64,000 nucleotides of DNA from Myxococcota bacterium (GTDB taxonomy: Bacteria; Myxococcota_A; UBA9160; UBA6930): assembly GCA_036560185.1 (NCBI GenBank), contig DATBRS010000247.1, positions 6,049 to 70,048 of the forward strand. Direction: 5' to 3'. Numbering within the stretch: position 1 is the first letter of the stretch; each line of letters begins with the position of its first letter. Position numbers and translations under genes: made by a program. The notes under the pieces were generated by a model that did no database searches, was not told the origin of the DNA, and was given only the letters and a program-made list of their open reading frames with translations. Of the stretch, positions 23,375 to 58,801 are shown one piece after another.

Positions 23375-23491
23375 AGCCGCGGCTTCGTTCGGCTTTCGCT
23401 TCGCGCCGCGGCCCGTAGCTTTCGGCGCATCGCGCCAATGCTCAAGCTGAACGCGCGGCGACCGAAGGCGCATGCATCGAGGGACTCGAGC

Positions 23492-28428: not shown

Positions 28429-28465
28429 AGCGGCGAGGCCGCGCGCGCTCCGCCCGGGCGCCGCG

Positions 28466-38433: not shown

Positions 38434-38590
38434 CGGGTTCTCCTGGGGGCTGCGGGAACTGAAGCGCCAGGTCGATGGGGCCGCGATTCCCCGAGAGGGA
38501 ACGAACGCCACACGGCTCCGAGAGCGCTGCTGCCCGCCCTGCGCCCGGCCCCTCCCCGCGGCGCATGCGTTCCGTATCTTGCGCGGACCC

Positions 38591-39655
38591 ATGGCCGCCC
38601 TCCTGCGAACGCCAGCGCCCCCCGCCGCTTCGAGCGCGGCCGCAGCGAGCCCGCCCGACTCGCTCGAGCGCGAGCTGGCGGCGACGCACCGCCCGCGGCC
38701 GGCGATTTATTGGGTGGACTTCCTCGCCTGCGTCGCGATCGGCTGGCCGGCTTTCGCGCTCGCGGTGGCGAGCTGGGGCAGCGGCGCCGCGTGGCTCGCA
38801 CTCGGCGTGGCGGTGTTCGCGCTCTACCGCGCCGCGCTCTTCATTCACGAGCTCACGCACCTCGCGAGCGGCGCGGTGCCCGGCTTCCTCGCGGCCTGGG
38901 ACGCGCTCGCGGGCTTCCCGCTGCTGGTTCCGAGCCTCATGTACGTGGGCTCGCACGGGGAGCACCACAAGGCGCACATCTTCGGCACCGCCGCGGATCC
39001 CGAGTACGCGCCGATCGCGCACTGGAGCCGGCCGCGGCTGCTCGTCGCGACACTGGGCATGCTGCTCATCCCCGCGGCGCTCGTGCTGCGCTGGGGCCTG
39101 CTCGTGCCGCTGGGAGCACTCGTGCCGGCGGTGCGGCGCTTCGCGATCACGCATCTCTCGACTCTCGCGATCAACGCGAGCTACGAACGCAAGCCGCCGA
39201 AGGGCGTGCTCAAGAAGCGCTGGCTCCGGGAAGAGCTCGGGTGCATGGCGGTGGTGTGGGCAGCGGGCGTGGCGCTCGCGCTCGGCGCGCTGCCCGTTCG
39301 CGCGCTCGCGCTCTGGTACGGGCTCGTCTCCGCGATCCTCATGATCAACCACCTGCGTACGCTCGGCGCGCACCGCTACGCGAACGAAGGCGCGGCGATG
39401 ACGCTCGACGAGCAGGTCGCGGACTCGGTGAACCTGTGGGGCCCCGCCTGGCTGCGTCCGCTCACCGCGCTGCTCGCGCCGGTAGGCCTGCGCTTCCACG
39501 CGCTGCATCACTTCTTCCCGACGCTGCCGTATCACGCGCTCGGCGCCGTGCATCGCCGGCTCGTGCGCGAGCTGCCCGCGGGCGCGGTCTACCGCACGAC
39601 CTCGCAGCCCGCGCTCACGAGCGCCCTGGTCGCGCTCGCGAACAAGCTGAAGTAG
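38591..39655 (+). CDS. Membrane fatty-acid desaturase/hydroxylase family protein (three His boxes)
   Basis: ATG at 38591. The His boxes are HELTH, HGEHH and HALHH, with TM segments between them. The HELxH...HxxHH layout recalls lipid and sphingolipid desaturases/hydroxylases. Confidence 0.75.
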   Translation: MAALLRTPAPPAASSAAAASPPDSLERELAATHRPRPAIYWVDFLACVAIGWPAFALAVASWGSGAAWLALGVAVFALYRAALFIHELTHLASGAVPGFLAAWDALAGFPLLVPSLMYVGSHGEHHKAHIFGTAADPEYAPIAHWSRPRLLVATLGMLLIPAALVLRWGLLVPLGALVPAVRRFAITHLSTLAINASYERKPPKGVLKKRWLREELGCMAVVWAAGVALALGALPVRALALWYGLVSAILMINHLRTLGAHRYANEGAAMTLDEQVADSVNLWGPAWLRPLTALLAPVGLRFHALHHFFPTLPYHALGAVHRRLVRELPAGAVYRTTSQPALTSALVALANKLK

Positions 39656-39667
39656 CGGGCGTCGCCT

Positions 39668-40633
39668 TCAGCGCAGCGCGCCGGAGCGAAGCAGGCGGAA
39701 GATCACGGGCCACGCGTAGAGGAGCGGGCGGCGACGTTGCCGTTCGCTGAGCTCGATCTTCGCTCCGCTGTGGCGCTCGACCTTCCAGACCGCGTAGGGC
39801 AGCCAACCCTGAAACGTGAACGCGGTCTTCAGCAGGCCAGCGATCGCGAGCGCCTTCGCGAGCGGACGTCGCGCGCGCCACGCCCGGCGGGCGCGCACGC
39901 GCTCGGCGAGCGGCTGCGCGACGCGCACGCTGGCCTCGTCGGCGTCCAGCAGCTCGATCTCGCCGCGCTCGGCGAGCGCGGCGAGCGCCGCGCGCAGCAC
40001 GGCGGCGTAGCGCGCGGGGTCGGCCGCCGCGATCGCGTCGATCGAGGCGGGGCGCTCGCTGCGCAGCTCGGCGCGATACGTCTCGCGGAACGCGTCGGCC
40101 CAGAGCGTGCGCACCGCGAGCGTTCGTTCGGGCGCATCGCCCGGAGCCCACGCGAGCATGCGCGACGCCATCGTGAGCGCCGCGGAAGCAGCGGCGGCGA
40201 CGATCGCGGTGCGCGCCTCTTCGTCGCGCGCCCACACCAGGCGCGCGGGCTGACAGAAGCGCGACCAGATGCGGCAGTCGACGCTCGCCGGCGTCGCCCG
40301 CCGCGCGAAATCCGCGAGCGAGATCAGCGCGTACTTCGCGCGCAGATTCTCCGCGCGCAGCTCGAGGTAGTGAACGTTCGGCGGCAACGCGGCGCCGAGC
40401 GCCGCGAGCGCGGAAGCGCCGTACGCGCCGCGGTAGCCGTCGACGATCACGTAGAAGTCGAGCACGCCTTCGCTGACGCCGCGGCGCAGGCACGAGCCGT
40501 AGAACAGCAGCGCGACGACGGCGGCGCCGTGGCGCGCGTGCAGCTCGCTCGCGAGGCGCTGCGCGCCGGGCAGCACCGGGCCCGCGAGCTCGGCCCGGAA
40601 GAGCGCCTCGAGAGCGTCGCGCGCGCTCGCCAA
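39668..40633 (-). CDS. Hypothetical protein, possible Tam41/Mmp37-like nucleotidyltransferase (phosphatidate-cytidylyltransferase-like fold)
   Basis: 321 aa. An NTase-type hG[GS]...D pattern (LLFYGSCLRRGVSEGVLDFYVIVD) is followed by HYLEL...LRAKYALISLADFARR and RIWSRFCQPARLV. As I recall, these parallel conserved Tam41 blocks. This rests on motif reading only. Confidence 0.35.
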   Translation of the reverse strand: MASARDALEALFRAELAGPVLPGAQRLASELHARHGAAVVALLFYGSCLRRGVSEGVLDFYVIVDGYRGAYGASALAALGAALPPNVHYLELRAENLRAKYALISLADFARRATPASVDCRIWSRFCQPARLVWARDEEARTAIVAAAASAALTMASRMLAWAPGDAPERTLAVRTLWADAFRETYRAELRSERPASIDAIAAADPARYAAVLRAALAALAERGEIELLDADEASVRVAQPLAERVRARRAWRARRPLAKALAIAGLLKTAFTFQGWLPYAVWKVERHSGAKIELSERQRRRPLLYAWPVIFRLLRSGALR

Positions 40634-40637
40634 ACGA

Positions 40638-41594
40638 TTAGGCGCGCGCGAAGCGCACGCTCTCCTCGGCGGTGATGGTGTAGGCGGCGTCGGCTTCGAT
40701 CGGGAACAGCTCGCCGTCCACGGTCACCTCGCAGCCGGCGCGCAGCGAGGCGCACGAGACTCGCGCGCTCGTGTAGCCGTGCTCCGGCGTCGCGAAGGCG
40801 GGGGCGCGGCCGCGCAGGATCTGCGGAATCGTGCGCGCCAGGCGCTCCGCGTTGCCTCGCACGAGCGTCGTGCGGATCGGCCCCTCGCCCGCTCCCCAAC
40901 AAGGCCGGAAGCCGAAGATCAGCCGCTCGAGCGTGGTGAACAGCGTGACCAGGCGCCGTTCATCGGGCAGCGGCTTGCCGTCGAACGCGAGCCCGATCTC
41001 GTCGGGATGCATCAGCGCGCCACGCGCGCCCGTGAGGATGTTGGCGACCAGCGTGCACGTGACGAGCGCGACGCCGATCGTCTCCTGCAGCCGCCCTTTC
41101 GGCAGATGGCGCGTGGTGAGCGACACGGCGCGCCCGAGCATGCCCGCCGCGGCGAACATGCCGCAGCGCACCTCACCGCTTCGCTGGCGCGCGACGCGCA
41201 ATACCGCGCGCGATGCGATGCGCGCCTCCAGCTTGCCCGCGCGCGCGTCCGCGACGATCTCGCGCAAGCCCTGCGCGCCGTCGCGCACGGCGCCGAGATC
41301 GGCCGCGGTCATGTTGGTTCGGCCGCCGCGAATCGGCGCGATCACCGGCAGCCAGCTCGGCCGGCCGGTCGCGAGCAGCGCGGTGAGGGCGCATTCGAGC
41401 GTGCCGTCGCCGCCGTTGACGATCAGTAGCTCGACGTCCGCGCGGCGCATCCGCTCGATCGCCTCGGGCACCGCGGCCGCCGAGGGCGTCGCGAAGTGCA
41501 TCACGTCGGGGGCACCCTCGACCTCGCGCAGGATGCGCTCGCCGAGGCGCTTGTTGCGGCCGGCGCGCAGGTTGTTGAGGAGGCCGATGCGCAA
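40638..41594 (-). CDS. Diacylglycerol-kinase catalytic-domain (DAGK_cat/LCB5/YegS-type) lipid kinase
   Basis: 318 aa. It has the signature LLIVNGGDGTLECAL and the pattern IAPIRGGRTNMTAADLG. TTG start. Confidence 0.75.
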   Translation of the reverse strand: MRIGLLNNLRAGRNKRLGERILREVEGAPDVMHFATPSAAAVPEAIERMRRADVELLIVNGGDGTLECALTALLATGRPSWLPVIAPIRGGRTNMTAADLGAVRDGAQGLREIVADARAGKLEARIASRAVLRVARQRSGEVRCGMFAAAGMLGRAVSLTTRHLPKGRLQETIGVALVTCTLVANILTGARGALMHPDEIGLAFDGKPLPDERRLVTLFTTLERLIFGFRPCWGAGEGPIRTTLVRGNAERLARTIPQILRGRAPAFATPEHGYTSARVSCASLRAGCEVTVDGELFPIEADAAYTITAEESVRFARA

Positions 41595-41633
41595 CTCGCG
41601 TTCTCGCTCGCGTGCGGGGCTCGTTCGTGCGCC

Positions 41634-42581
41634 CTACTGGTAGAACGTGTAGCTCGCGATCGCCGTACCCTCGCGCCGCGCCGCCCGCGCGCCCTCGCGC
41701 ACGTCGATCGCGAACGGTGACGCCATCCACGCCGACCGCAAGCGCAGCCCGAGCACGAAGCGGATGGGCGCCGGCAGGTCGGCGAGCGGGTCGTAGCTGG
41801 CGAGCGGCGCGCCCGCGCTCAGCACGCCGGGCGCGAGCGGGCCCGCCAGCGCGAGCCGCGCGGCCGGAGCGTCGAGCTTCTCGTTCGGAACCTGCGTCGC
41901 ACTCTCTTGCGCGAGCAGCTTGCCGTGCGCGTCGAACGCGACGACCCAGCGCTCGGCGCGCTTTCCGTTCGCGACCTCGAGCACGTAGATCGGCGCGGCG
42001 CCGAGGGTGAAGGCCTCGAGGCGGCGCTGCGCGAGCTTGGACTCCGGCCCTTCGATCTTGCGCCGCGAGAGCGCGACGCGGCCCTTGCCGGCGAGCGGTG
42101 CCGCCATGCCGCGCTTCCAGAACGACGCATTCAGCGGAGCGCCGGCGGCCCATAATTCCTGCGTCCACTTTCCGCCGGCGAGCGTGTGGGTGGCGAGCGG
42201 CGCCGCCGCGAGCGGGAAATCGAGCGTCAGCTGCAGACTCTTCTTCTCGACGCGCAGCTGCGCGCGCGGCTGCGTGCGATCGAACACGAACTTGCCGAGG
42301 TCGATGCGCTTGCCGTCGGGGCTCGGCGTCCATGCGCCGCCGAGCTTCGCGCGCGAGAAGGGCGTGAGCGCGCCGTCCGGCGCGAGCCAGTTGCCGATCG
42401 CCGCTGCGTTGCGCTCGCCGGGCCCGATGTCGGTGAGCGTGAACTCGACGAACACTTGCTCGCCAGAATCGAGCCGCGCGGCGAGCAGCCACCATTCGGT
42501 CGGCGCCGCGTGCGCGGCGGCAGCCGCCGCAAGCCCGAGCCCACACGACCAGCGCAGCACGGCAGCGAGCATGCGGAACAC
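41634..42581 (-). CDS. Secreted protein of unknown function (possible AttH/CrtC-type lipocalin-like fold)
   Basis: Signal peptide MFRMLAAVLRWSCGLGLAAAAAAHA. The mature N-terminus APTEWWLLAARLDSGEQVFVEFTL recalls the EWWY motif of AttH-like lipocalin domains, which is weak evidence. It lies inside the lipid operon. Confidence 0.4.
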   Translation of the reverse strand: MFRMLAAVLRWSCGLGLAAAAAAHAAPTEWWLLAARLDSGEQVFVEFTLTDIGPGERNAAAIGNWLAPDGALTPFSRAKLGGAWTPSPDGKRIDLGKFVFDRTQPRAQLRVEKKSLQLTLDFPLAAAPLATHTLAGGKWTQELWAAGAPLNASFWKRGMAAPLAGKGRVALSRRKIEGPESKLAQRRLEAFTLGAAPIYVLEVANGKRAERWVVAFDAHGKLLAQESATQVPNEKLDAPAARLALAGPLAPGVLSAGAPLASYDPLADLPAPIRFVLGLRLRSAWMASPFAIDVREGARAARREGTAIASYTFYQ

Positions 42582-42587
42582 TCCCGG

Positions 42588-43754
42588 TCAGCGCTGCGAG
42601 GCCATCTGCGCGAGCGCGATCTCTTCCTCCCACGGGCGCAGCGTGCGGCCGGCCGCGCGCAGCGCGAGCGCGTGCGCGAGCCGCGCGACGTGGAACGCGA
42701 TCGAGAGGCCCGTCCACCAGGCCACCGCTTCGAAGCCGAGCGCCGGCGAGCCGGCGAGCGTGCAGAGCGTCAGCAGCACGAGGTTGGGATTGCGGCGCGC
42801 CGTAATCAGTCGAAAGAAGGAATCGAGCGGCCGCCACGAGTGCGTCTCGAATCCGCACGCGAGCATGAAGACGCCCTCGAGCAGACGGCCGGCGACGTAG
42901 CCGCCGATCACGACGAGCGCGGCCGGGGATTGGAGGCCCACGCCGATGCCGAGCGCCCACGCGGCCCACCAGACGGGTGGATGCGCGAGGTCGAGCCCGT
43001 GATCGAGCCAGTGCCCGATCGGCGACGAGCTCTGCGTGACGCGCGCGAGCTTGCCGTCGACCGTGTCGAGGAAGGTCATGCACCACGCGGCGCCGAGGCC
43101 GAGGCCGAACTCGCCGTGCGCGAACGCGAACGTCGCGTAGAGCACGAGCGCCCAGCTCATCAGCGTGACGACGTTCGGCGTGATGCCGAAGCGCGCGCAC
43201 GCTCTCACGACGCGGAACGCGAGCGGGGGCCACGCGTACTTCGTGATGAAATCCGTGACGCCCTTGTAGGACGCGTCGAACAGTGCCCGCTCGATCTCCG
43301 CCGCGTTCCCCGGCGTCGCGATGCGCAGCAGCGGAGGCGCGAGCTTGCGCAGCTCCGGCGTGTAGGCGGGCGCGAGCTGTTCGGCGCTGCGCACGGCGAC
43401 CCCGCCGAGCGGCGCACCGCCCGCGAGCCATGCCGCGGCTTCCGCGGCGCGCTCGCCCGCGACCACCGCGGCGGCCGGCCCCGCGCTCTCCGCGACCAGC
43501 GCGACGGGGTCGCCCGTGAGCAGCTGCTTCGCGATGCGCTCGTCGAGCACCGCGTCGCCGCGCACGAGCAGCACGAGCTCCCCGTCGCGAGCGGCTCCCG
43601 CACTCGCGCCGCCGGCGCTGACCTCGCCTGCGCCCGCGCGCGAGAAGGTCTGCGCGAGGCGCGCGTCGCTGCGCTGCGCGAACAGGACGGGGAGGGGCGC
43701 GCCGGAGGGCGCGAGCACGAACACGCGGCGCGCAGCGGCCTCGGCGCCGCTCAT
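42588..43754 (-). CDS. Fusion of a degenerate nucleotidyltransferase-like domain to a CDP-alcohol phosphotransferase (copy 1)
   Basis: ATG at 43754 (GAGGAG upstream). The C-terminal half carries the family motif DTVDGKLARVTQSSSPIGHWLDHGLD (D-G-x2-A-R...G-x3-D-x3-D) within multiple TM helices. The N-terminal ~190 aa are alpha/beta-like (VFVLAPSG...LVLLVRGDAVLDERI). It is a paralog of 45633..46931. Confidence 0.75.
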   Translation of the reverse strand: MSGAEAAARRVFVLAPSGAPLPVLFAQRSDARLAQTFSRAGAGEVSAGGASAGAARDGELVLLVRGDAVLDERIAKQLLTGDPVALVAESAGPAAAVVAGERAAEAAAWLAGGAPLGGVAVRSAEQLAPAYTPELRKLAPPLLRIATPGNAAEIERALFDASYKGVTDFITKYAWPPLAFRVVRACARFGITPNVVTLMSWALVLYATFAFAHGEFGLGLGAAWCMTFLDTVDGKLARVTQSSSPIGHWLDHGLDLAHPPVWWAAWALGIGVGLQSPAALVVIGGYVAGRLLEGVFMLACGFETHSWRPLDSFFRLITARRNPNLVLLTLCTLAGSPALGFEAVAWWTGLSIAFHVARLAHALALRAAGRTLRPWEEEIALAQMASQR

Positions 43755-43781
43755 TCGCTCCTCATCCGCGCGCAGCGTTGC

Positions 43782-44759
43782 GTGCCCATTCGCATCCTCG
43801 AGTCGGGCTCCCAGCGACCGGCGCGTATCATAGGCCGGTACGCTCTGGAGGTCGCCGCGCTGTTCCGGCTCGCCCACGTTTCCGATCTGCACGCTACGCG
43901 CGTGCGCTTCTCCGGCCTCGCTGAGCTGAACGCGAAGCGCGCGCTCGGCTGGCTCTCCTGGCAGGTGCGGCGGCGCCGCAAGTACCGGCCCGAGATCGCG
44001 GCGCGCGTGATCGACGATTTGGTCGCGAGCGCCCCCGATCACGTCGCGGTGACCGGCGATCTCACGCACATGGGCCTCGACGCGGAAGTCGCGGAAGCCG
44101 CGGCGTGGCTCGCGCGGCTCGGCCCGCCCGAGCGCGTGACGCTCGTCCCCGGAAATCACGACGCGTATGGCGCGCGGCTCGATCACGCCTGCATGGACGC
44201 ATGGCGCCCCTATTTAAATTCAGACCAGGGCGCGCGGGGCGCGACGCGAGCGGCGGCGCCCTTCCCCAGCCTGCGCGTTCGCGGTCCGGTGGCGCTCGTG
44301 GGCCTCAGCTCCGCCGTGCCCACGCCGGTGCACCTCGCGACCGGGCGCGTCGGCGAGGCGCAGCTCGCCGCGTTGCCCGACCTGCTGCGCGACCTCGCTG
44401 CGCGCAAGCTCTGCCGCGTCGTGCTCGTCCACCACCCGCCGACGCGCGCGCACGTCTCGTGGCGGCGGCGCCTCGAAGACGGCCCCGCGCTGTGCCGGAT
44501 CCTCGCGCGCGCCGGCGCCGAGCTGGTGCTGCACGGGCACACCCATCGCGCCGCGCGCGACGCGATCGCGAGCGCGCATGGGCCGATCCCGGTGCTCGGC
44601 GTGCCCGCGACGTCCTCCGCCGTGCGCGCTCGGCCGGGCGCTTATCAGGTGTTCTCGATCGCAGAGCGCGGCGCAGGCGGCTACGCGATCTCGCGCGAGC
44701 TGCGCGAGATCAGCGGCGTATCAGGCCCGCTGCGCTCGCTCGGCAGCGAATCGCTCTAG
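43782..44759 (+). CDS. Calcineurin-like metallophosphoesterase
   Basis: Motifs are HVSDLH, VTGDLTH, PGNHD, LVHHPP and VLHGHTH. The start is uncertain. GTG at 43782 is the first canonical start, but a CTG at 43860 sits 8 nt after a GGAGG and would give the typical N-terminus (M)FRLAHVSDLH. Confidence 0.75.
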   Translation: MPIRILESGSQRPARIIGRYALEVAALFRLAHVSDLHATRVRFSGLAELNAKRALGWLSWQVRRRRKYRPEIAARVIDDLVASAPDHVAVTGDLTHMGLDAEVAEAAAWLARLGPPERVTLVPGNHDAYGARLDHACMDAWRPYLNSDQGARGATRAAAPFPSLRVRGPVALVGLSSAVPTPVHLATGRVGEAQLAALPDLLRDLAARKLCRVVLVHHPPTRAHVSWRRRLEDGPALCRILARAGAELVLHGHTHRAARDAIASAHGPIPVLGVPATSSAVRARPGAYQVFSIAERGAGGYAISRELREISGVSGPLRSLGSESL

Positions 44760-44761
44760 GG

Positions 44762-45568
44762 CTAGGCCCCGCGTTTCAGCAGCCGCTCGACGAGCGCGAA
44801 ATCCTCGAGCTTGTCGACGTCGATGCCCGCGCGGCCGTCCGCGAGCCGCACGGCGCCGATGCGCGCGCCGCTGGCTCGCGAGATCGCCTCGAGCGCGGCC
44901 TCGAGGGGCAGGCGCCCGGCCATGAAGCGCGCGAGCGTGACCGCGCCGAACACCGCGGCGAGGCGCCAGGGCTCCTTGCGGAAGCCCTCGGCTCTGCGCC
45001 AGAACGCGGCGACGCGCGCGGCGCCGGGCGTGCGCGCCAGGAACAAGTTCGCGCCGGTGAAGCGCTCGCGGCCGAGCCGCAGCCAGGTTCGCTTGTTATG
45101 GGGAGCGACTGCGAGCACCGCCAGGTCGGGCACGAGCGCCACGCACAGGTCGTTCCCGCTCGCGAGCGCGTCGTCGAGGAATGCGCTGACCGTGGCGGCC
45201 GCGAGCAGCGGATGATCGGCGGTCGTCACCAGCACGAGCGCACTCGCGCTGCGCTCGACGAAATCGCGCACGCTGTCCGCGGGCGACGAGCCGCTCGCGT
45301 GCAGCGCGAGCTCGCCGGAGGCGAACGCGGGGCCGAACTCAGGATGGCGCCGCAGCGCCTCGGGGTCGTCGATGCTGATCGTGATCTGCCCGACCGCCGG
45401 CACGGCGCGCAGCGCCTCCAGCACGTACGAGAGCAGCGGCCGCCCATGCATCGGCGCCAGCGCCTTGTGCGTGACCCCCGCCGCGCGCGCGATCGGCTCC
45501 TCGCCGCCGCGCCGGCCGGCGAGCACGAGCGCAGCCACCGTCTCCGTTCGCTTCGGCTTCGTGAGCAC
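44762..45568 (-). CDS. MobA-like (NTP_transf_3) nucleotidyltransferase family protein
   Basis: 268 aa. The N-terminus AALVLAGRRGGEEPIARAAGVTHKALAPMHGRPLLSYVLEAL and the later LVTTADHPLL are typical of this fold. Confidence 0.65.
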   Translation of the reverse strand: MLTKPKRTETVAALVLAGRRGGEEPIARAAGVTHKALAPMHGRPLLSYVLEALRAVPAVGQITISIDDPEALRRHPEFGPAFASGELALHASGSSPADSVRDFVERSASALVLVTTADHPLLAAATVSAFLDDALASGNDLCVALVPDLAVLAVAPHNKRTWLRLGRERFTGANLFLARTPGAARVAAFWRRAEGFRKEPWRLAAVFGAVTLARFMAGRLPLEAALEAISRASGARIGAVRLADGRAGIDVDKLEDFALVERLLKRGA

Positions 45569-45632
45569 GCGCCGCGATTAGAGCACATCTGCCGGAGCCG
45601 GACGGCGCGCGGGCGCGCGCAGCGCCCACGAT

Positions 45633-46931: not shown

Positions 46932-47075
46932 ACGCGCGGCAGCCGCTCGGCGCCGCCGCCGGCGCGCTCGTCTCGCTCGCGATCGCGTGAGGCGCGCTCG
47001 TGACGGCGCGCGGCGGCGCGCCGATCCGCGCGCGGAGGCGGCTACTCTGCGCGCGCGAATCCGCCCGAGGCCGCC

Positions 47076-49779: not shown

Positions 49780-49877
49780 CGTGGTGGCTCTCCGTTCCGC
49801 GCGTTCCCGCTGCGCCGAGGCTGGCGCGCATTGTCGTCTACCGGACCGATTCAACAAGGTGGGTAAGCTGCGCGCGC

Positions 49878-52136: not shown

Positions 52137-52214
52137 CACGCGGGCAAACCTGGGGTTACTCTGGCCGGGCGCGCCGCGGCCCCTCTCCGCGACGGCCCTC
52201 GCCGGGAGACGTGA

Positions 52215-53021
52215 ATGTTCGGCCGCCGTTCGGACGGAACGCTCGTCCGCAATCTGCCGAAGCTGCGGCGGTTCATGCCGTTCGTGTCACCGCGACGCAA
52301 CGAGTCGGCGTTCTACTACTCCCACGAGATCGAAGTCGACGCCGCCCTGCGCTTCCTCGAGGAGCAGAACAAGACGCGGCCCCCGGGCAGGCAAATCACG
52401 CTGTTCCACCTGTACTTGCGAGCGGTGGCGCTCGGCCTGCGCGACAACGAGGAGGTGAACCGCTTCACCGCGGGCGGCCGTCTGTACCAGCGAAACGGAG
52501 TCTTCCTGACCTTCAGCGCCCTGCGCGAGCTGCAGAAGGGCTCCCATCTGATCACCGTGAAGCGCGCCTTCCCGGCGGGCGAGACGCTTCCCGGAATGGT
52601 AGACCGCGTGCTCGACTCGCTGGTGAGCCGGCGCAGCGGGACCAAGACCCAAGCCGACAAGGAGGTCGACCTCGCGCTCTACCTGCCAACGCCGCTGATT
52701 CGCGGCGTGATGAAGCTTCTCCGCTGGGCGGATTCGCTCGGCGTTTTGCCCAAGTCGATGATCGACGACGACCCGCTGTTCACCTCGTTGTTCGTGGCGA
52801 ACCTCGGATCGCTGGGCATGGAGTCCGGTTACCACCACCTGTGGGAATACGGCACATGCTCGGGCTTCTGCGTCATGGGACGCATCCGAACGCGGCCGGA
52901 CGGCAGCCGCTACGTCGTTTGTAATTACACCTGGGACGAAAGGGTTGCCGACGGCCTCGCCACGAGCTTCGCGCTCGGCGGCTGGAAGGAGCGCGTCGAG
53001 AACCCGGAGAAACTCATCTGA
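52215..53021 (+). CDS. 2-oxoacid-dehydrogenase E2 catalytic-domain-like (CAT-fold) acyltransferase-like protein; no lipoyl domain, canonical His replaced
   Basis: ATG at 52215 with a GGGAGAC SD. The C-terminal block NYTWDERVADGLATSFALGGWKERVENPEKLI matches the E2 signature sfDHRviDGaxaaxFlxxlkxxlExPxxLl, except that DHR reads DER. The stop overlaps the spt N-terminal coding region. Confidence 0.6.
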   Translation: MFGRRSDGTLVRNLPKLRRFMPFVSPRRNESAFYYSHEIEVDAALRFLEEQNKTRPPGRQITLFHLYLRAVALGLRDNEEVNRFTAGGRLYQRNGVFLTFSALRELQKGSHLITVKRAFPAGETLPGMVDRVLDSLVSRRSGTKTQADKEVDLALYLPTPLIRGVMKLLRWADSLGVLPKSMIDDDPLFTSLFVANLGSLGMESGYHHLWEYGTCSGFCVMGRIRTRPDGSRYVVCNYTWDERVADGLATSFALGGWKERVENPEKLI

Positions 53022-53056
53022 CGGATCTATTCGACAAAGTCGCCAGTTACGACCGA

Positions 53057-54205
53057 GTGAGAACCCTGCGAGACCATGCGATCTACCCGTACTACCGGGT
53101 CGTCTCGTCGGGCCAAGACCCGGTCGTCCTCATGAACGGACGCCCAGTCGTGATGCTGGGCTCGAACAACTACCTCGGGCTATCGAGCCATCCCGAGGTG
53201 AAGGCCGCCGCCGCCGCGGCGCTCGACAAATACGGGACCGGCTGCGCCGGGTCGCGGCTGCTGAACGGCACCCTCGACATCCACGTGGAGCTCGAGGATC
53301 GCCTCGCGCGCTTCATGCGGCGCGAGGCCGTGATCACGTTCGCGACCGGCTATCAGGCGAACGTCGGCGCGCTCTCGACGCTGCTCGGGCGGCACGACGA
53401 GGTGTTCCTCGACAACCTCGATCACGCCTCCCTGCTCGACGGCATCCGGCTCGGCTTCGCGAAGGACCGCAAGTTCCGGCACAACGACATCGCGGACCTC
53501 GAGAAGAAGCTGAGCGCGGCGCCGAAGGACTCGGGCAAGCTGATCGTCGTCGACGGCGTCTACTCGATGGAAGGAGACCTCGGCGACCTGCCCGGAGTGT
53601 GCGCCGCGGCCAAGAAGTACGGCGCGCGCGTGATGGTCGACGAGGCCCACGGCATCGGCGTGATGGGCACGAACGGCCGCGGCGCGTGCGAGCACTTCGG
53701 CGTCGAGTCCTCCGTCGACCTCGTGATGGGGACCTTCTCGAAGTCGCTGGCGTCCGTCGGCGGGTTCATCGCGGGGAGCCGCTTGGTGGTCGACTACATC
53801 AAGCACACCGCGCGCTCGGCGATCTTCTCCGCCGCGCCCGCTCCGCCGGTGATCGGCGCGGTGATCAAGGCGCTCGACATCCTCGAGCGCGAGCCGGAGC
53901 GGCGCAAAGCGCTCTGGGAGAACACCGACTACATGAACCGCGCGCTGACGTCGCTGGGCTTCGACATCGGCAAGCCTCAGTCGCCGGTGATCCCGATCAT
54001 GATCGGGCCCGACGAGATCGCGTACGAGATGGCGGTGCGGCTGCAGGACGAGGGCGTGTTCGCGAACCCCGTCGTGTCGCCGGCGGTGCCCCAAGGCAAC
54101 GCGATGATCCGCACCTCGTACATGGCGACGCACACGCGCGAGCACCTCGACACCGCGCTCGATGCGCTCGCCAGCGTCGGCCGTCAGCTCGGCGTGATTC
54201 GCTAG
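53057..54205 (+). CDS. spt: Serine palmitoyltransferase-like alpha-oxoamine synthase (PLP-dependent)
   Basis: It contains GTGCAGSRLLNGT (an SPT-type loop), RKFRHND, VDGVYSMEGD, VDEAHGIG, and the PLP-lysine block GTFSKSLASVGGF. Overall it is collinear with Sphingomonas SPT as I recall it. The conserved N-terminal segment TDLFDKVASYDR lies upstream of the first canonical start, so the true start may be CTG at 53018. Confidence 0.8.
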   Translation: MRTLRDHAIYPYYRVVSSGQDPVVLMNGRPVVMLGSNNYLGLSSHPEVKAAAAAALDKYGTGCAGSRLLNGTLDIHVELEDRLARFMRREAVITFATGYQANVGALSTLLGRHDEVFLDNLDHASLLDGIRLGFAKDRKFRHNDIADLEKKLSAAPKDSGKLIVVDGVYSMEGDLGDLPGVCAAAKKYGARVMVDEAHGIGVMGTNGRGACEHFGVESSVDLVMGTFSKSLASVGGFIAGSRLVVDYIKHTARSAIFSAAPAPPVIGAVIKALDILEREPERRKALWENTDYMNRALTSLGFDIGKPQSPVIPIMIGPDEIAYEMAVRLQDEGVFANPVVSPAVPQGNAMIRTSYMATHTREHLDTALDALASVGRQLGVIR

Positions 54206-54243
54206 GCGCGACCGCGGCGTGCGCCGGTCAGCCCGCATCCCGC

Positions 54244-54274
54244 GGAAGCAAAGGGGTCAGACCCCTTTGCTTCC
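54244..54274 (+). other. Perfect 13-bp stem-loop between the spt-like gene and the SDR gene
   Basis: GGAAGCAAAGGGG-tcaga-CCCCTTTGCTTCC lies in the 78-nt spacer. There is no flanking U-tract on either strand. Confidence 0.6.
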
Positions 54275-54283
54275 GGGCGCGCC

Positions 54284-55084
54284 GTGAGCGCGCGCGCCGT
54301 CCTCGTCACGGGCGCGTCGTCAGGCATCGGCGCCGCGGCGGCGGCGTTGCTCGCCGCGCGCGGCTTCCGCGTCTACGGCGCGAGCCGGAGCGCGCGCAGC
54401 GAGCGCGACGGCATGCGCTGGCTCGCGCTCGACGTGCGCGAGCCCGCCTCGGTAGAGCGCGCCGTCGCTCAGATCGTCGAGCGCGAGGGCGCGCTGTACG
54501 GCGCGGTCTGCAACGCCGGCATCGGCATCTTCGGCAGCGTCGAAGAGACGCCGATGGAGCGCGCCCGCGCGCAGTTCGAGACGAACGTCTTCGGCGTGCT
54601 GCACACGCTGCGCGCGGTGCTGCCGCCGATGCGCACGGCGCGCGCCGGCCGCATCGCGATCGTCGGCTCGCTCGCCGGCCGCGCGCCGATTCCGTTTCAG
54701 GCGCACTACTCCGCAACCAAGGGCGCCGTCGACGCGCTCGCTCTCTCGCTGCACAACGAGGTGCATGCGTTCGGCATCCACGTCGCGCTGATCGAGCCGG
54801 GCGACATCAACACGGGCTTCAACGACGCCACCGATTGGGGCGGCACCGCCGCGGCGAGCGCCTACGGCGCGGCAATCGTGAACGCGGAGCGCGTGATCCG
54901 CGAGTCGCTGCCGAGAGCGCCCGGGCCCGAAGTCGTGGCGCGCGCGATCGCGCACGCGCTCGAGGCTCGGCGGCCGCGCGTGCGCTACCCGGTCGGGCCC
55001 GATTCGAAGCTCGTGCCGCTCGGCAAGCGTCTGCTTCCCGAGCGCGCGGTGCTCGCGTTGATCCGCGACCACTTCGAGATGTGA
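54284..55084 (+). CDS. Classical SDR oxidoreductase (candidate 3-keto-sphingoid reductase by context)
   Basis: GTG start. It has TGASSGIG, NAG, and YSATKGAVDAL (YxxxK). It lies immediately downstream of the spt-like gene. Confidence 0.8.
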   Translation: MSARAVLVTGASSGIGAAAAALLAARGFRVYGASRSARSERDGMRWLALDVREPASVERAVAQIVEREGALYGAVCNAGIGIFGSVEETPMERARAQFETNVFGVLHTLRAVLPPMRTARAGRIAIVGSLAGRAPIPFQAHYSATKGAVDALALSLHNEVHAFGIHVALIEPGDINTGFNDATDWGGTAAASAYGAAIVNAERVIRESLPRAPGPEVVARAIAHALEARRPRVRYPVGPDSKLVPLGKRLLPERAVLALIRDHFEM

Positions 55085-55101
55085 GGCGCGCGGGACGCGC
55101 C
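55085..55101. terminator. Short GC hairpin between convergent genes
   Basis: GGCGCG-cggga-CGCGCC lies between the SDR stop (55084) and the PhyH stop (55104). This is weak evidence. Confidence 0.25.
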
Positions 55102-55103
55102 GA

Positions 55104-56393
55104 TCACGCCTCGCGGCGCAGGATCTTCTGCTTCTGCTGCTCGGTGAAGCGCAGCAGCCGCGCCATGTACTCGAGGCGCGCGTAATCCCGTCCCACGTGA
55201 TGGATCGTGTCGAAGGGATCGTCCTCGCCGAGCATCTCGCCGAGGCGCGGCGAGTTCCGGTGCAGCAGCTGCGGATCGACGCGCTTCGGCTCGAGGCTGC
55301 GCAGGATCCCGCGGTTGAAGTGCCAGTGCAGCGTCACGCGATCGCCGGGCTCGCTGCGATCGCCCTGCCAGTGCCAGAGGCCGTGCGTGAAGAACACGAC
55401 CGAGCCTTTGGGCATCTCGATCGGAACGCCGGGCGGATGCGCCTCGCCGGGCCGTGGCGAGCGCCGCAGGCGATGGCTGCCGGGAATCACCCAAGTCGGG
55501 CCGGACTCGACGCGCCAATCCTCGAGGGCCCACACGCCGACTCCCGTCAGCGCGAACTCCGGATGCGGCTCGGGCACGAGCGCGTAGTCGGTGTGGATCG
55601 GGATCGCGGTCTTGCCGGGGCCCTTGCGAATCGCGCTGAGCGAGCCGATCACGGCGCCGCGGCCGAGCGAGGCGTCGATCAGCGTGAGCAGCAGCGGGTG
55701 CTGCGCGAGCCGCTCGAACTCGCGGCCGTGGTAGAGCATCCACTGCAGCTGCGTTCCCGTTCCCCCTAATTGCTGGCTGCGATCGCTGCCGTGGGTGAGC
55801 AGCGCGCGCAGCGTCGCCGCCCGCAGCTCGTCCGCGAACTCGGGCGAGATCGCGCGCTCGAGCACCGCGTAGCCCTGCTCCTCCATGTCGCGAATCTTCT
55901 GCGCCACGCCCTGGCGCGCGGCGCGGTGCGCCAGATCGGGGTTCTCGACGGTGCGCCGCGCCATGTGGTCGTGCAGCATCGCGACCAGCTCGGCCGCTTG
56001 CGGGTCCGCGAATTGGCCGCGCGCGCGAACCGCGCCGGCGCCGAAGATCGCCGCGATCTCGCGCATCAGTGCGTCCATTGCGCCCGGCGCGAACACTCCC
56101 ACGAACTGCGCGGCCGTGAGCGCGGCCTGATAGTCGCCTTCGACCACGACGTCCGCGCGCTCGTCGAAGCCGCGCCGCAGCTCGATCTTCTCGCCGTCGT
56201 AGCGCGCGCTCCACGCGGCGACGTCGCCCGCCAGCTTCAAGTGCGGCGGCGCGTCGGTGAAGCGCTCGCTCAGCGAGAACGCGCGGCCCGCGAGCCGCTC
56301 CCTACGCGCCGCGACCTCGCGCACCAAGAACTCGCGCGCCTCCTCGAGCCAGGCGTCGGAGAGGAACTCGCAGTGATGCGGGAGCGTGATCAC
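55104..56393 (-). CDS. Phytanoyl-CoA dioxygenase (PhyH)-family Fe(II)/2-oxoglutarate oxygenase with an N-terminal SCP2-like domain
   Basis: GTG at 56393 with an AGGAAGGG SD. The C-terminal part reads IPIHTDY...WVIPGSHRL...GSVVFFTHGLWHWQG (the HxD...H facial triad pattern). The N-terminal ~150 aa (ADVVVEGDYQAALTAAQF...) look SCP2-like, tentatively. Confidence 0.7.
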   Translation of the reverse strand: MITLPHHCEFLSDAWLEEAREFLVREVAARRERLAGRAFSLSERFTDAPPHLKLAGDVAAWSARYDGEKIELRRGFDERADVVVEGDYQAALTAAQFVGVFAPGAMDALMREIAAIFGAGAVRARGQFADPQAAELVAMLHDHMARRTVENPDLAHRAARQGVAQKIRDMEEQGYAVLERAISPEFADELRAATLRALLTHGSDRSQQLGGTGTQLQWMLYHGREFERLAQHPLLLTLIDASLGRGAVIGSLSAIRKGPGKTAIPIHTDYALVPEPHPEFALTGVGVWALEDWRVESGPTWVIPGSHRLRRSPRPGEAHPPGVPIEMPKGSVVFFTHGLWHWQGDRSEPGDRVTLHWHFNRGILRSLEPKRVDPQLLHRNSPRLGEMLGEDDPFDTIHHVGRDYARLEYMARLLRFTEQQKQKILRREA

Positions 56394-56419
56394 TTGTGCC
56401 GCCCTTCCTGCCGCCCATG

Positions 56420-58801
56420 CTACTCGGCGTCCCACGCATAGCGGAGCTGAACGCCCCACGTGCGCGGCGGGGCGTACGTCGAGATCGTGCTGCCGCTGGT
56501 CGCGTTCGGGGCGTGGTTCGTCACGTAGTCCACGTCGCCGATGTTCTCGACGAAGGCCTGAAACGTCACGCCCGCGAGCCGGTCCTCGGGCAGGTTCCAG
56601 ATCAGGCGCAGATTCCCGATGTTGTACGGCGCTTGGCGCCCGAAGTCGTTGTTGAACACGGTGTGGAACTGCTCGGACGTGTACGCGTACTCGCCGCGGA
56701 ACGTGACGTCGCCCGCGCTCCCGGTCCCGAGCGTGTACTGACCCGCGAGCGTGAACTTCCACTCCGGCGCCCGCAGCAGCGCGTTGCCCCTGAGATCCTG
56801 CGGACCCAGCCCAGGGAAGATCGGGTCGACGTCCGCGTATTCCGTGAAGCGCGCATGGAGGATCGAAAGCGACGACTCGATGCGCAGCGGCTCGAGCGGG
56901 ACCCAGAGCGCCTCGACCTCGACTCCGTAGGTCTCGGCGGTCGCCGCGTTCGAGACGATCGCCGCGTTGTTCACGAATTTGCGAACCTGCAGATCCGTGT
57001 AGTCATTGAAGAACGTCGACACGTTGACCTGAAGCGTGTTCTCGAAGAGCTGGGTCTTCACGCCCGCCTCGTACGCGTTCACGTACTCGGGGTCGTAGGT
57101 GTTGTCACAGCTCCCCACGTTGTAGCCGCCCGCTTTGAAGCCGCGGGTGTACGTGGCGTACAGCAGCGTGCTCTCCGCGACGTCCATGTCGACCCCGAGC
57201 TTTCCGGTCGGCGAGCTCCACTCCTCCGTCGAGCGCTGGTCGCGGCAGCCGGCCGGAACGGGCGAGAGGTTGAGCACTTGAGAGTGCACGTCGACCTTCT
57301 GGTCCTTCGTCCAGCGGAAGCCGCCTGTCAGGCGGACGGCCTCCGTCACATGGAACGTCTGCTGGGTGAAGAGCGCCCACGAGGTCAAGTCCTGATCGAG
57401 GCTGAACTCGAGGAACGGCACCGGGCTCGGCGTCCCGTCGAGCTTCACGCCGGTGACCGGATTCGCGAAGGGCAGCAGTGCGAGGCTGCCGGGCGGCAGC
57501 GGGGGGCCGCCTCCGAAGATTCCGAAGATCGCCTCATAGGTCGCCTGCAGCGCAGGCAGCGTGTACCGGTACTCCTCGAAGATGTGCGAGTCGTAGTAGA
57601 AGAAGCCGAAGATCCAATCGAGTCGCTCGTCGAACGCGCTACCGCTGACGTCGATCTCCTGCGACCACTCCTCGTTCGACTGCTCGTAGTCGCCCACGAG
57701 CAACTGGATCGGGATGCCGTCGTTGTTGAATGGGTCGAGATCCTGGTCGAGGTCGAGGTAGGACGAGATCCACTTGACGGCAATGTCGTCCGTCGCGTTC
57801 CAGCTCACGGTCGCGTTCACGTCCCAGTTGTCGCGGTAGTAGTTCTGGTCTCCCTCGTAGTTGACCTTGCGCGGATTCCCGGTCGGGAAGCCAGGCGGCG
57901 ACAGTGTCAATCCGAAGACCTGCGTGCAGGTGAGCGTGGGATCGCACACGCCTGGGAAGTTGAGGATGCCGCCCGGATTGCTGCCGCTGATGAACAGCGG
58001 GGCGACGGGCGTGTCCGCGGTCTTGATGAACGGCGCGCCGCCGACCTCGCTGCGTAGCCAGTTGAAGCGGAGCGCGACCTCGAGGTCCTCCGTCGGCGTG
58101 AGGAGCGCCGCGAGCTTCGCTTGCCGATAGCGCGCGTCGTCTTCCTCGTTGCCGGTGTTCGTGTTCTTCGTGTACCCGCCTCGCGAGTCGTACGAGAAGC
58201 CACCGCGCAGCGCGAGGATGCCATCGATCAGCGGCACGTCGCCGAACGCCTCCGCGCGCCAGCGGCTGTAGTCGCCGTAGAGCGTGCTCACGTCCAAGCT
58301 GGGCCTCTCGCCCGGCAGCTTCGTGATCACGTTCAGGCTGCCGCCGGTGGAGTTGCGCCCGTACAAGGTGCCCTGCGGCCCGCGCAGCACCTCGACCCGC
58401 TCGGCGTCGAAGAACAGCGCCGAGGAAGAGACCAAGCCACCGCGGTAGACACCGTCCTGGTGCAGCGCGACGCCGGGCTCGGCGTCGATCGTGGAGATGT
58501 CGACGCCGATGCCACGCATCGTGATCTGTGCCATGTCGGCGATCTCGCCGTACACGAGCGCCGGCGCCACGAACTGGATGTCGTTGAAGTCCTCGAGGCC
58601 CTGTTCCTCGATCGCCTCGCTCGTGATCGCGGTGACGGCGATTGGCGTGTCCTGCAGGTTCGTCTCGCGCTTCTCCGCCGTGATCGTAATCTCTTCGATC
58701 CCGCCGCGATCCGGCGGCGGCGCAGGCGCGGCCTCCTGCGCGGCGCTGGCCCCCGCCAGCGCGACGGCCGCGGAGAGAGAAAAGGGAAGGAACTGGCGCA
58801 T
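56420..58801 (-). CDS. TonB-dependent outer-membrane receptor
   Basis: ATG at 58801 gives the signal peptide MRQFLPFSLSAAVALAGASAAQE. The plug region reads IEEITITAEKRETNLQDTPIAVTAI...VEVLRGPQGTLYGRNSTGG. A long beta-barrel follows. Confidence 0.85.
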   Translation of the reverse strand: MRQFLPFSLSAAVALAGASAAQEAAPAPPPDRGGIEEITITAEKRETNLQDTPIAVTAITSEAIEEQGLEDFNDIQFVAPALVYGEIADMAQITMRGIGVDISTIDAEPGVALHQDGVYRGGLVSSSALFFDAERVEVLRGPQGTLYGRNSTGGSLNVITKLPGERPSLDVSTLYGDYSRWRAEAFGDVPLIDGILALRGGFSYDSRGGYTKNTNTGNEEDDARYRQAKLAALLTPTEDLEVALRFNWLRSEVGGAPFIKTADTPVAPLFISGSNPGGILNFPGVCDPTLTCTQVFGLTLSPPGFPTGNPRKVNYEGDQNYYRDNWDVNATVSWNATDDIAVKWISSYLDLDQDLDPFNNDGIPIQLLVGDYEQSNEEWSQEIDVSGSAFDERLDWIFGFFYYDSHIFEEYRYTLPALQATYEAIFGIFGGGPPLPPGSLALLPFANPVTGVKLDGTPSPVPFLEFSLDQDLTSWALFTQQTFHVTEAVRLTGGFRWTKDQKVDVHSQVLNLSPVPAGCRDQRSTEEWSSPTGKLGVDMDVAESTLLYATYTRGFKAGGYNVGSCDNTYDPEYVNAYEAGVKTQLFENTLQVNVSTFFNDYTDLQVRKFVNNAAIVSNAATAETYGVEVEALWVPLEPLRIESSLSILHARFTEYADVDPIFPGLGPQDLRGNALLRAPEWKFTLAGQYTLGTGSAGDVTFRGEYAYTSEQFHTVFNNDFGRQAPYNIGNLRLIWNLPEDRLAGVTFQAFVENIGDVDYVTNHAPNATSGSTISTYAPPRTWGVQLRYAWDAE

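Follow-up and report, generated by a model that had tools for sequence, protein, structure and literature searches.

A Myxococcota gene cluster that probably represents a variant of the Caulobacter-type system for ceramide phosphoglycerate synthesis and export

A 64-kb stretch of DNA from a Myxococcota bacterium (GenBank assembly GCA_036560185.1, contig DATBRS010000247.1, positions 6,049 to 70,048), here called the window, contains a cluster of genes for lipid-type chemistry that a sequence-only reading had put forward as a candidate undescribed pathway. We analysed the gene content of this locus, its conservation in related genomes, and its relation to the genes with which Caulobacter crescentus makes the anionic sphingolipids ceramide phosphoglycerate (CPG) and CPG2. 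On the strength of this comparison we consider it probable that the locus is a Myxococcota variant of the Caulobacter-type CPG/CPG2 system for synthesis and export of an anionic phosphosphingolipid (PSphL).

Gene content and limits of the locus

The G+C content of the window is about 72%, which made raw lists of open reading frames (ORFs) useless, and genes were called from the G+C content of third codon positions (GC3) over the window. This yielded 16 consecutive lipid-type genes at 38591-56393, named g01 to g16. The sequence-only reading had described the same consecutive run, with a count of 17 genes that is not reproduced by GC3-based calling. The genes are listed below together with the adjoining g17; bit scores are those of the Pfam family named.

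g01, 38591-39655, plus strand: membrane fatty-acid desaturase/hydroxylase family (FA_desaturase, 87 bits)
g02, 39668-40633, minus strand: CpgC-like (CC_1161-like) Tam41-fold nucleotidyltransferase (NTase), from a structure model
g03, 40638-41594, minus strand: DAGK-fold lipid kinase, CpgB-like (DAGK_cat, 28 bits)
g04, 41634-42581, minus strand: secreted/periplasmic protein with an N-terminal signal-like hydrophobic segment, no family
g05, 42588-43754, minus strand: NTase-like N-terminal domain fused to a CDP-alcohol phosphotransferase (CDP-AP), type 1 (CDP-OH_P_transf, 40 bits)
g06, 43866-44759, plus strand: metallophosphoesterase, CC_1158-like (Metallophos, 61 bits)
g07, 44762-45568, minus strand: MobA/CofC-like NTase, CC_1153-like (NTP_transf_3, 54 bits)
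g08, 45633-46931, plus strand: NTase-like domain fused to a CDP-AP, type 2 (CDP-OH_P_transf, 34 bits)
g09, 47076-48239, plus strand: TagB/TagF-like CDP-glycerol-type glycerophosphotransferase family (Glyphos_transf, PF04464, 27.6 bits)
g10, 48224-49012, minus strand: sulfotransferase-like protein, a weak call (Sulfotransfer_1, PF00685, 21.1 bits against a cut-off of 22)
g11, 49009-49857, minus strand: CpgD-like (CC_1152-like) NTase (NTP_transferase, 43 bits)
g12, 49878-52136, plus strand: single-polypeptide LptF-LptG fusion, LptB2FG-type permease of 752 amino acids (LptF_LptG)
g13, 52215-53021, plus strand: E2/CAT-fold acyltransferase-like protein without the canonical catalytic His (2-oxoacid_dh, 28 bits)
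g14, 53057-54205, plus strand: serine palmitoyltransferase (SPT), Bacteroidota type (NCBIfam and PDB scores)
g15, 54284-55084, plus strand: classical short-chain dehydrogenase/reductase (SDR), probable 3-ketodihydrosphingosine reductase (adh_short, 136 bits)
g16, 55104-56393, minus strand: PhyH-family Fe(II)/2-oxoglutarate oxygenase (PhyH, 71 bits, residues 170-341)
g17, 56420-58801, minus strand: TonB-dependent receptor adjoining the locus (Plug and TonB_dep_Rec_b-barrel)

Searches with Pfam and NCBIfam profiles upheld nearly all domain calls of the sequence-only reading, including the membrane desaturase/hydroxylase, the DAGK-type lipid kinase, the metallophosphoesterase, the MobA-like and the second (LicC-like) NTase, the TagB/F-like transferase, the SDR and the TonB-dependent receptor that follows the run. 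Its listing of a LicC-like NTase, a TagB/F-like protein and a sulfotransferase has to be rearranged, the real order being g09 (TagF-like), g10 (sulfotransferase-like) and g11 (NTase).

Two stretches of the locus are co-directional and tightly packed: g12 to g15 (lptFG-g13-spt-SDR), where 36-79 bp separate neighbouring genes, and g05-g04-g03-g02, where the gaps measure 4-39 bp. Genes for TetR, MFS, P450 and MmyB-like regulator proteins lie upstream of the locus, and genes for an amidohydrolase and a luciferase-like oxygenase downstream. Because the genes flanking both sides are unrelated, we place its limits at roughly 38.6 and 56.4 kb. The start of g06 may lie at 43782, as in the gene call of the Joint Genome Institute (JGI; 325 amino acids). 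Just upstream of g01 there is also a small ORF on the minus strand (38104-38592; JGI call of 109 amino acids), whose match to DUF2834 is weak (17 bits, under the cut-off) and which was not found in related loci.

A core cassette is syntenic across distant lineages

Relatives of the locus were collected by scanning one genome per species with a profile of the g08 family. This gave 249 relatives, of which the best 80 were used: metagenome-assembled genomes (MAGs) of Myxococcota, Candidatus Binatia and Dongiaceae/Rhodospirillaceae, together with cultured Dongia; Caulobacter falls outside these 80. All window proteins were compared with the related loci (numbered with the prefix L) by tblastn, and eight core genes were counted within 10 kb in the 40 loci of at least 20 kb. 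At least six of the eight were present in 25 of these 40 loci, and all eight in 14; this clustering is far beyond chance. Synteny in relatives, which the sequence-only reading had named as its own test, is thus borne out: synteny of the core cassette extends over Myxococcota, Candidatus Binatia, and alpha- and betaproteobacteria, and the Myxococcota and Binatia loci keep the order g01-g02-g03-g04-g05 / g06 / g07 / g08 / g11 / g12. Only in L001 and L005 does the TonB-dependent receptor gene g17 follow g15.

The cluster is divided in several Binatia genomes, with g07-g08-g11-g12 together and g01-g06 not within 10 kb. This suggests two modules, one for lipid activation (kinase, Tam41-like enzyme, first CDP-AP and phosphoesterase) and one for head-group activation or transfer (MobA-like NTase, second CDP-AP and CpgD-like NTase). 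The head-group module (g07, g08, g11) sits next to the exporter gene.

The link to Caulobacter is provided by the alphaproteobacterium Dongia soli (L049), whose locus reads epimerase, acyl carrier protein (ACP), Spt, Tam41-like, kinase, CDP-AP, metallophosphoesterase, HIT, LptF, LptG, second CDP-AP, a 391-aa protein in the position of the bacterial ceramide synthase (bCerS), MobA-like and NTase. This order is collinear with the published CC_1164..CC_1152 genes apart from one extra gene, the g08-type CDP-AP. The Dongia proteins match g02, g03, g05, g06, g07, g08, g11, g12 and g14 at 21-53% identity (E 2e-13 to 2e-91).

The published genes of C. crescentus comprise CC_1167, with a CDP-glycerol glycerophosphotransferase domain; CC_1161, with a Tam41-like InterPro domain; the ceramide kinase CC_1160; CC_1159, a PF01066 protein with a cytoplasmic N-domain; the calcineurin-type phosphoesterase CC_1158; the HIT protein CC_1157; CC_1156/1155, which are LptF2/LptG2; the bCerS CC_1154; the MobA/CofC-like CC_1153; and the nucleotidyltransferase CC_1152 (PMC11324152 S1 Text). 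This system was characterised between 2021 and 2026 (Zik 2022; Olea-Ozuna 2021/2024; Dhakephalkar 2023/2025; 2026 Lpt preprint). The genes cpgB, cpgC and cpgA convert ceramide to CPG and CPG2 (Zik 2022; PMC9393093), CpgD (CC_1152) makes CDP-glycerate from CTP and phosphoglycerate (Dhakephalkar 2025; PMC12275187), and LptF2/G2 bind LptB and are required once the anionic lipid is made (bioRxiv 10.64898/2026.04.12.717747); the sequence of steps in Caulobacter has been established by genetics. Because the gene set of the window corresponds to CC_1152-CC_1168, the proposal of an undescribed pathway is not supported: the combination said to match none known is that of the Caulobacter locus for CPG and CPG2. 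The outline given in the sequence-only reading, a ceramide-type lipid that is phosphorylated, decorated through CDP chemistry and exported by Lpt proteins, draws support from homology to this experimentally studied system.

A complete cpg-like locus was also seen on pDCB2, a conjugative IncP plasmid of Diaphorobacter sp. JS3051 (L127; NZ_CP065408.1, record 43799-68722). Its gene arrangement resembles that of Dongia, and its proteins likewise match those of the window. Both types of CDP-AP are present, together with SPT, ACP, fatty acyl-AMP ligase, a desaturase and a protein that occupies the bCerS position; the kinase, the Tam41-like protein, the metallophosphoesterase, HIT, LptF, LptG and two NTases complete the set. 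Alongside lie genes for a nonribosomal peptide synthetase, P450, a phosphopantetheinyl transferase, an MsbA-like ABC transporter and a lysophospholipid acyltransferase. A blastn comparison of pDCB2 DNA with E. coli genomes gave no match.

Seven of the MAG contigs (L001, L007, L008, L018, L019, L023 and L025) are titled Spirochaetales, Spirochaetaceae, Enterobacteriaceae or Klebsiella pneumoniae. They carry relatives of g08 at 45-80% protein identity, and L001 has the gene order of the window at 61-92%, on account of which the taxonomic labels of these bins look unreliable.

Lipid kinase and Tam41-like enzyme

The kinase gene g03 matches only generic lipid kinases in NCBIfam, and it adjoins the Tam41-like gene in every related locus, including those of Dongia and pDCB2. 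The product of g02 has no Pfam or PDB sequence match, either as a single sequence or as an 11-member profile. Its AlphaFold2 model, built with 36 homologues, has a pLDDT of 93.5, and a Foldseek search of the PDB with this model placed four Tam41 chains (6IG4/6IG2) on top (E 2e-8 to 7e-8), followed by the family of aminoglycoside nucleotidyltransferases (E 4e-4). The earlier suggestion of a possible Tam41-like NTase is thereby confirmed by structure. Orthologues of g02 are syntenic and 40-75% identical. For the bacterial CpgC family, no member has an established reaction (PMC9393093; PMC12275187); by analogy, g02 would activate ceramide-1-phosphate with CTP. The term CDP-ceramide was not found in the literature searched, and it would be the presumed intermediate.

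The metallophosphoesterase gene g06 is syntenic in related loci, including pDCB2. Between kinase and CDP-AP, g04 is kept in the Myxococcota and Binatia loci and is absent from those of Dongia and Diaphorobacter. The protein gave no Pfam or PDB match, even with Pfam run on 18 orthologues and an 18-member profile against the PDB, and it shows no BLAST similarity to a DUF3108 protein in the equivalent region of pDCB2. It had been called a secreted lipocalin-like protein. Secretion fits its signal-like segment; the lipocalin-like assignment was rejected, its sole basis being one family member at E 0.11.

Two CDP-alcohol phosphotransferase paralogues

Both g05 and g08 belong to PF01066 and contain the full DxxDGxxAR...GxxxDxxxD catalytic motif. 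The AlphaFold2 model of g08 (pLDDT 93.8) finds as its top fold match the bifunctional IPCT-DIPPS 4MND over its whole length (E 1e-11), and its N-terminal 200 residues also match NTases of the RmlA, MurU and CofC types. Since the model matches 4MND over the full length, the N-terminal domain can be assigned the NTase fold. At the place where a GxGxR loop is expected, however, g08 reads IDATPPES, and the family consensus is equally divergent. This replacement marks the domain as degenerate, in line with the earlier description of two degenerate-NTase/CDP-AP fusions, and because the nucleotide-binding loop is absent the domain is probably not a cytidylyltransferase.

The two paralogues share 33% identity. 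Separate orthologues of each are present in Myxococcota, Binatia, Dongia and Diaphorobacter, as judged by reciprocal matches and a neighbour-joining tree that splits cleanly, and since the two clades stay separate across these four lineages, the duplication is older than the spread of the locus. It is g05 that lies in the position of Caulobacter CpgA/CC_1159, and the gene order in Dongia favours g05 as the CpgA orthologue. Head-group transfer would be divided between the two enzymes.

Probable head-group nucleotidyltransferases

The gene g07 is syntenic, and its product has TTHA0179 (2DPW, 69 bits) as its best PDB match. The product of g11 is 41% identical to its Dongia and Diaphorobacter orthologues and matches the IPCT/DIPPS model of NCBIfam at 45 bits. 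Its PDB matches include 4JD0, the template named for CpgD (PMC12275187); the structure of CpgD itself was not found in the PDB. By analogy with CpgD, g11 is a candidate CTP:phosphoglycerate cytidylyltransferase.

Probable backbone and hydroxylation genes

In addition to its Pfam match (Aminotran_1_2, 198 bits), g14 scores best with the SerpalmtaseCFB model of NCBIfam (534 bits, cut-off 640), ahead of BioF/Kbl (425) and KBL (412). Among PDB sequences, Sphingobacterium SPT leads with 434 bits, followed by Thermus BioF/KBL (342), E. coli KBL (294) and Sphingomonas SPT (289). On both sets of scores g14 is an SPT and not a BioF/KBL enzyme, as the sequence-only reading had supposed, though it stays under the SPT equivalog cut-off of 640. 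The SDR gene g15, which comes after spt in L001, L003 and L005 as well, has KdsR (NF049977, 209 bits, cut-off 400) as its third best NCBIfam match.

The accessory genes of the Caulobacter ceramide route had been reported as missing nearby, and our searches agree. The Dongia CerR-like, ACP and bCerS-position proteins gave no tblastn match in the 64-kb window at E<0.01, and Pfam searches of all other window genes found no ACP, acyl-ACP synthetase, bCerS or epimerase-type reductase. The single GNAT in the window is a 167-aa protein at 28421-28924.

The desaturase-family gene g01 heads the cassette in Myxococcota and Binatia loci and occurs on Diaphorobacter pDCB2. Its product is a probable lipid hydroxylase, the counterpart of Caulobacter CC_0202, a DesA-type hydroxylase encoded outside the CC_1152-CC_1168 locus (PMC11324152). 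The second oxygenase gene, g16, is specific to the window and absent from all related loci. Its PhyH domain stands as called, while the SCP2-like domain ascribed to it was not found, and its 165-aa N-terminal region has no family match.

The E2/CAT-fold call for g13 holds up, though its catalytic His is replaced by Glu: the profile aligns DERxxDG of g13 to DHRxxDG of E2, and D-E-R-x-x-D-G occurs in g13 and in 21 of 21 aligned homologues. The family comprises well-conserved 268-aa Myxococcota proteins (892 homologues), which share 55-60% identity across distant members and an invariant GYHHLWEYGTC. Only in the close clade of the window does g13 lie beside spt, between lptFG and spt. The surroundings differ for five more distant homologues (from the set L081, L082, L123-L126): a TetR gene follows four of them, and these are preceded by an FHA-GAF-guanylate-cyclase gene, a small GNAT-like gene or both; g13 is also absent from L006 and from more distant cpg-type loci. 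We considered g13 as a ceramide synthase, given that bCerS follows LptG in Caulobacter, and downgraded it to a weak candidate because of the His-to-Glu change in all homologues, the location of the distant members elsewhere, and its absence from L006 and the distant loci.

A fused LptF-LptG permease

The exporter gene g12 encodes both halves of the permease in one protein, as the sequence-only reading had it. Pfam LptF_LptG matches in two stretches (368 bits), and the NCBIfam models assign residues 29-375 to LptF (TIGR04407, 225 bits) and residues 410-751 to LptG (TIGR04408, 260 bits). Relatives in Myxococcota and Binatia loci align as single full-length high-scoring segment pairs, and LptF and LptG are thus fused in these two groups and separate in proteobacterial loci.

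A variable island with g09 and g10

The genes g09 and g10 are absent from all 80 genome loci. In metagenomes, homologues of g09 lie beside cpg-type genes (g02-g03-g05-g06 or g07) in 18 of 34 loci, a recurrence that fits CC_1167 in Caulobacter, and g09 and g10 are paired in L089, L090 and L109. CC_1167 itself is probably unrelated to PSphL synthesis according to Olea-Ozuna (PMC11324152), and the authors of the CpgD study drew a TagD/TagF analogy for CPG2 (PMC12275187). The sulfotransferase call for g10 is a weak one: Sulfotransfer_1 is its best family, with a score below the Pfam cut-off. The same family is best for two homologues (16.7 and 18.2 bits; profile positions 5-184 of 255). The g10 sequence contains a PKSxSS loop resembling a 5'-phosphosulfate-binding (5'-PSB) loop, and it has no PDB sequence match.

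An assembly chimera was ruled out as the origin of g09-g10, since the arrangement g11-g10-g09-g08 is present on two independent Logan contigs. A 40.5-kb JGI contig from the same organism ends 87 bp past g08, and because it breaks there we regard the gap between g08 and g11 as a variable spot. The gap (46931-49009) holds g09 and g10 in the window and is empty in the closest genomes, L001 and L005 (L084 and L109 were also compared). In L109 it contains a SGNH hydrolase, a methyltransferase, an unknown gene, g09, g10 and another unknown gene. Glycerophosphate or sulfate decoration may rest on g09 and g10, outside the conserved core. Elsewhere in the window, about 27-32 kb upstream of g10 (16608-21646), an F420H2-dependent quinone-reductase-like gene is flanked by genes for an alkyl sulfatase (metallo-beta-lactamase type, Alkyl_sulf domains) and for an arylsulfotransferase of the ASST type.

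Other observations in the window

At 21572-24667, an Amidohydro_3 protein is followed by a homologue of indoleamine 2,3-dioxygenase (PF01231, 325 bits), an enzyme seldom seen in bacteria; the pair may form a module of the tryptophan or kynurenine type. At 315-14958, a surface protein of 1,493 aa with DUF11/SdrD repeats is followed by ExbB, ExbD and a number of very large TPR proteins, all encoded on the minus strand, and this block may be an envelope-spanning motor or transport cluster.

A proposed pathway and its alternatives

The best-supported reading of the locus is an anionic phosphosphingolipid pathway built on CDP chemistry, parallel to the route through CDP-diacylglycerol (CDP-DAG). 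Going by their families, the SPT g14 would join serine to an acyl thioester by condensation, after which the 3-keto group would be reduced by the SDR g15. N-acylation would fall to an enzyme outside those found; a bCerS may sit elsewhere in the genome, with g13 as a weak candidate. The lipid may be hydroxylated by g01 and perhaps g16. Kinase g03 would then form ceramide-1-phosphate, as CpgB does in Caulobacter, and g02, given its fold, would activate it with CTP in a manner comparable to CDP-DAG synthesis. CDP-glycerate would be supplied by g11 from CTP and phosphoglycerate, the reaction of CpgD, with assistance from the MobA-like g07. Transfers of phospho-alcohols by g05 and g08 would build the phosphoglycerate head group, and g06 would trim a phosphate or nucleotide. 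The anionic lipid would be extracted from the inner membrane toward the outer membrane by g12, presumably powered by LptB; this extraction role of LptF2/G2 was shown in Caulobacter genetically and by pull-down (bioRxiv 10.64898/2026.04.12.717747). As a lineage-specific add-on, g09 and g10 may extend or sulfate the head group. We infer the roles of g09, g10, g13 and g16 and every substrate in this organism.

Several points weigh against this reading. A ceramide synthase is missing from the window, as judged by tblastn with the Dongia bCerS-position protein, and Caulobacter was reported to have one CDP-AP (CC_1159), not two (PMC11324152). Orthology to cpgA-D, indirect but strong, is read from published domain descriptions and from the gene order shared by way of Dongia and Diaphorobacter rather than from direct alignment. 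Neither the substrate of g11 nor the acceptors of g05 and g08 can be read from sequence, and NCBIfam ranks inositol-phosphate transferases first for g05 and g08. Each half of g12 scores about at the threshold of its canonical LptF or LptG model, and the halves are only 21-26% identical to the alpha- and betaproteobacterial LptF2/G2, for which reasons g12 may be the sole LptFG of the organism and not a dedicated paralogue. A preprint describes Myxococci as having a single lptFG and points, for M. xanthus, to an MmpL next to spt (bioRxiv 10.64898/2026.04.12.717747). Finally, g09 and g10 are also found together in a cluster of capsule type that includes Wza and Wzi.

One alternative is the same machinery with another head group, such as inositol phosphate, glycerol phosphate or a sugar phosphate, giving for example ceramide phosphoinositol or phosphoglycerol. 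Here the NCBIfam names (archaetidylinositol-phosphate and phosphatidylinositol phosphate (PIP) synthase for g05 and g08, IPCT/DIPPS for g11) would be taken at face value, along with the IPCT-DIPPS-like fold of g08 and the membership of g09 in the CDP-glycerol glycerophosphotransferase family, and ceramide phosphoinositol has been reported in Myxococcus xanthus (PMC9246714). The inositol-type models nevertheless score far under their cut-offs (22-45 bits against 170-580), and the Pfam searches of all called genes confirmed that the window has no myo-inositol-phosphate synthase gene; an inositol head group was rejected on these two grounds. Moreover, the structure nearest to CpgD is IMPCT 4JD0, yet its substrate is phosphoglycerate (PMC12275187), and collinearity with the CPG2 locus covers the entire gene set. 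We consider another head group unlikely. A glycerolipid anchor in place of ceramide, in which a DAG kinase and a Tam41-like enzyme would make CDP-DAG for an unusual anionic glycerophospholipid and SPT and LptFG would be mere neighbours, seems to us quite improbable. Tam41 is itself a CDP-DAG synthase, CC_1160 phosphorylates DAG as well as ceramide (PMC11324152 S1 Text), and spt is not within 10 kb in 26 of the 40 related loci that measure 20 kb or more. The homologous Caulobacter genes act on ceramide, however, spt lies in or beside the cassette in the window, its close relatives, Dongia and pDCB2, and lptFG-g13-spt-SDR forms one operon-like block in the window.

The locus might even be no single pathway, and instead a chance or loose neighbourhood of envelope genes, combining an LptFG with housekeeping duty, a TagF/sulfotransferase pair of capsule type and various lipid enzymes. 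The window-specific g09, g10 and g16, the capsule cluster with Wza and Wzi, the mostly unrelated context of g13 homologues and the canonical look of the g12 halves would all fit. We hold this to be very unlikely, given that the order of eight core genes is kept across four phylum- or class-level lineages and that the Caulobacter homologues have mutant phenotypes and cofitness in common (PMC11324152). A more elaborate product is conceivable within the phosphosphingolipid reading, if doubtful: a longer, teichoic-acid-like anionic sphingolipid in which the second CDP-AP fills the so far missing step by coupling CDP-ceramide to the first (phospho)glycerate, g09 polymerises phosphoglycerate or glycerophosphate, g10 sulfates, and the fused LptFG exports the product as a surrogate or partner of lipopolysaccharide. 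If that were true, the two-paralogue solution would hold for Binatia, Dongia and the plasmid-borne loci.

Significance

Anionic sphingolipids that can replace lipid A, together with Lpt-type export, have so far been shown in one model organism. Uncultured Myxococcota are now seen to have the toolkit, and synteny extends it to Candidatus Binatia, Dongia and a conjugative IncP plasmid; if this kit for an outer-membrane sphingolipid is mobile, the patchy occurrence of the locus would be explained. New in the window are a Bacteroidota-like sphingoid-base route joined to this toolkit and a permease fused in one polypeptide, and further novelty lies in the anciently diverged second NTase-like/CDP-AP paralogue, g04, the window-specific g09/g10 pair and the E2-like g13 without a catalytic His. 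Lpt-linked sphingolipid loci outside Proteobacteria bear on the claim that Myxococci have a single lptFG and probably another exporter. With two CDP-APs, split modules and a TagF-like/sulfotransferase-like add-on, these loci also offer natural variants for working out the reactions of CpgC and CpgA.

Comparison with known systems

The closest known system is the Caulobacter locus. It shares with the window SPT, the DAGK-fold kinase, the Tam41-like protein, the PF01066 CDP-AP with a cytoplasmic N-domain, the metallophosphoesterase, the MobA-like NTase, NTP_transferase, Glyphos_transf and LptF plus LptG, as well as the DesA-type hydroxylase family (g01 in the window), and the gene order is collinear by way of the Dongia and Diaphorobacter loci. 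In contrast to Caulobacter, AcpR, AasR, CerR, bCerS, HIT, LptC2 and the flippase were not found in the window by Pfam and tblastn. A KdsR-like SDR comes after the window SPT, which is of the Bacteroidota type, LptF and LptG form one polypeptide, two CDP-AP paralogues are present against the one reported, g04, g10, g13 and g16 are extra, and the host is a member of the Myxococcota.

For the backbone, the nearest enzymes are those of Bacteroidota: g14 is closest to Sphingobacterium SPT and the CFB-group SPT model, and g15 matches the KdsR model. Compared with the Sphingobacterium/Bacteroides SPT and the 3-ketosphinganine reductase BT_0972, g14 and g15 score under the equivalog cut-offs (640 and 400), and the Bacteroidota backbone genes are scattered and unlinked to cpg-type or Lpt genes.

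Individual steps have further parallels. The two-domain build of g08, and of g05 by homology, is that of IPCT-DIPPS of Archaeoglobus fulgidus (4MND) and of bacterial PIP synthases. Identity is 12-18%, however, the N-domain of g08 lacks the GxGxR nucleotide-binding loop, the stand-alone NTases g07 and g11 are encoded beside g08, and no inositol-phosphate synthase gene lies nearby. The fold of g02 is that of Tam41, the mitochondrial CDP-diacylglycerol synthase (6IG2/6IG4; Foldseek E 2e-8, TM 0.48-0.56), and its place beside a lipid kinase is as expected of an enzyme acting on lipid phosphates, whereas its identity to Tam41 is 13-14%, it has no Pfam Mmp37 match, and its substrate would be ceramide-1-phosphate. 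Teichoic-acid TagF/TagB proteins share PF04464 with g09, homologues of which recur beside cpg-type genes; the match is weak at 27.6 bits, and the donor could be CDP-glycerate rather than CDP-glycerol.

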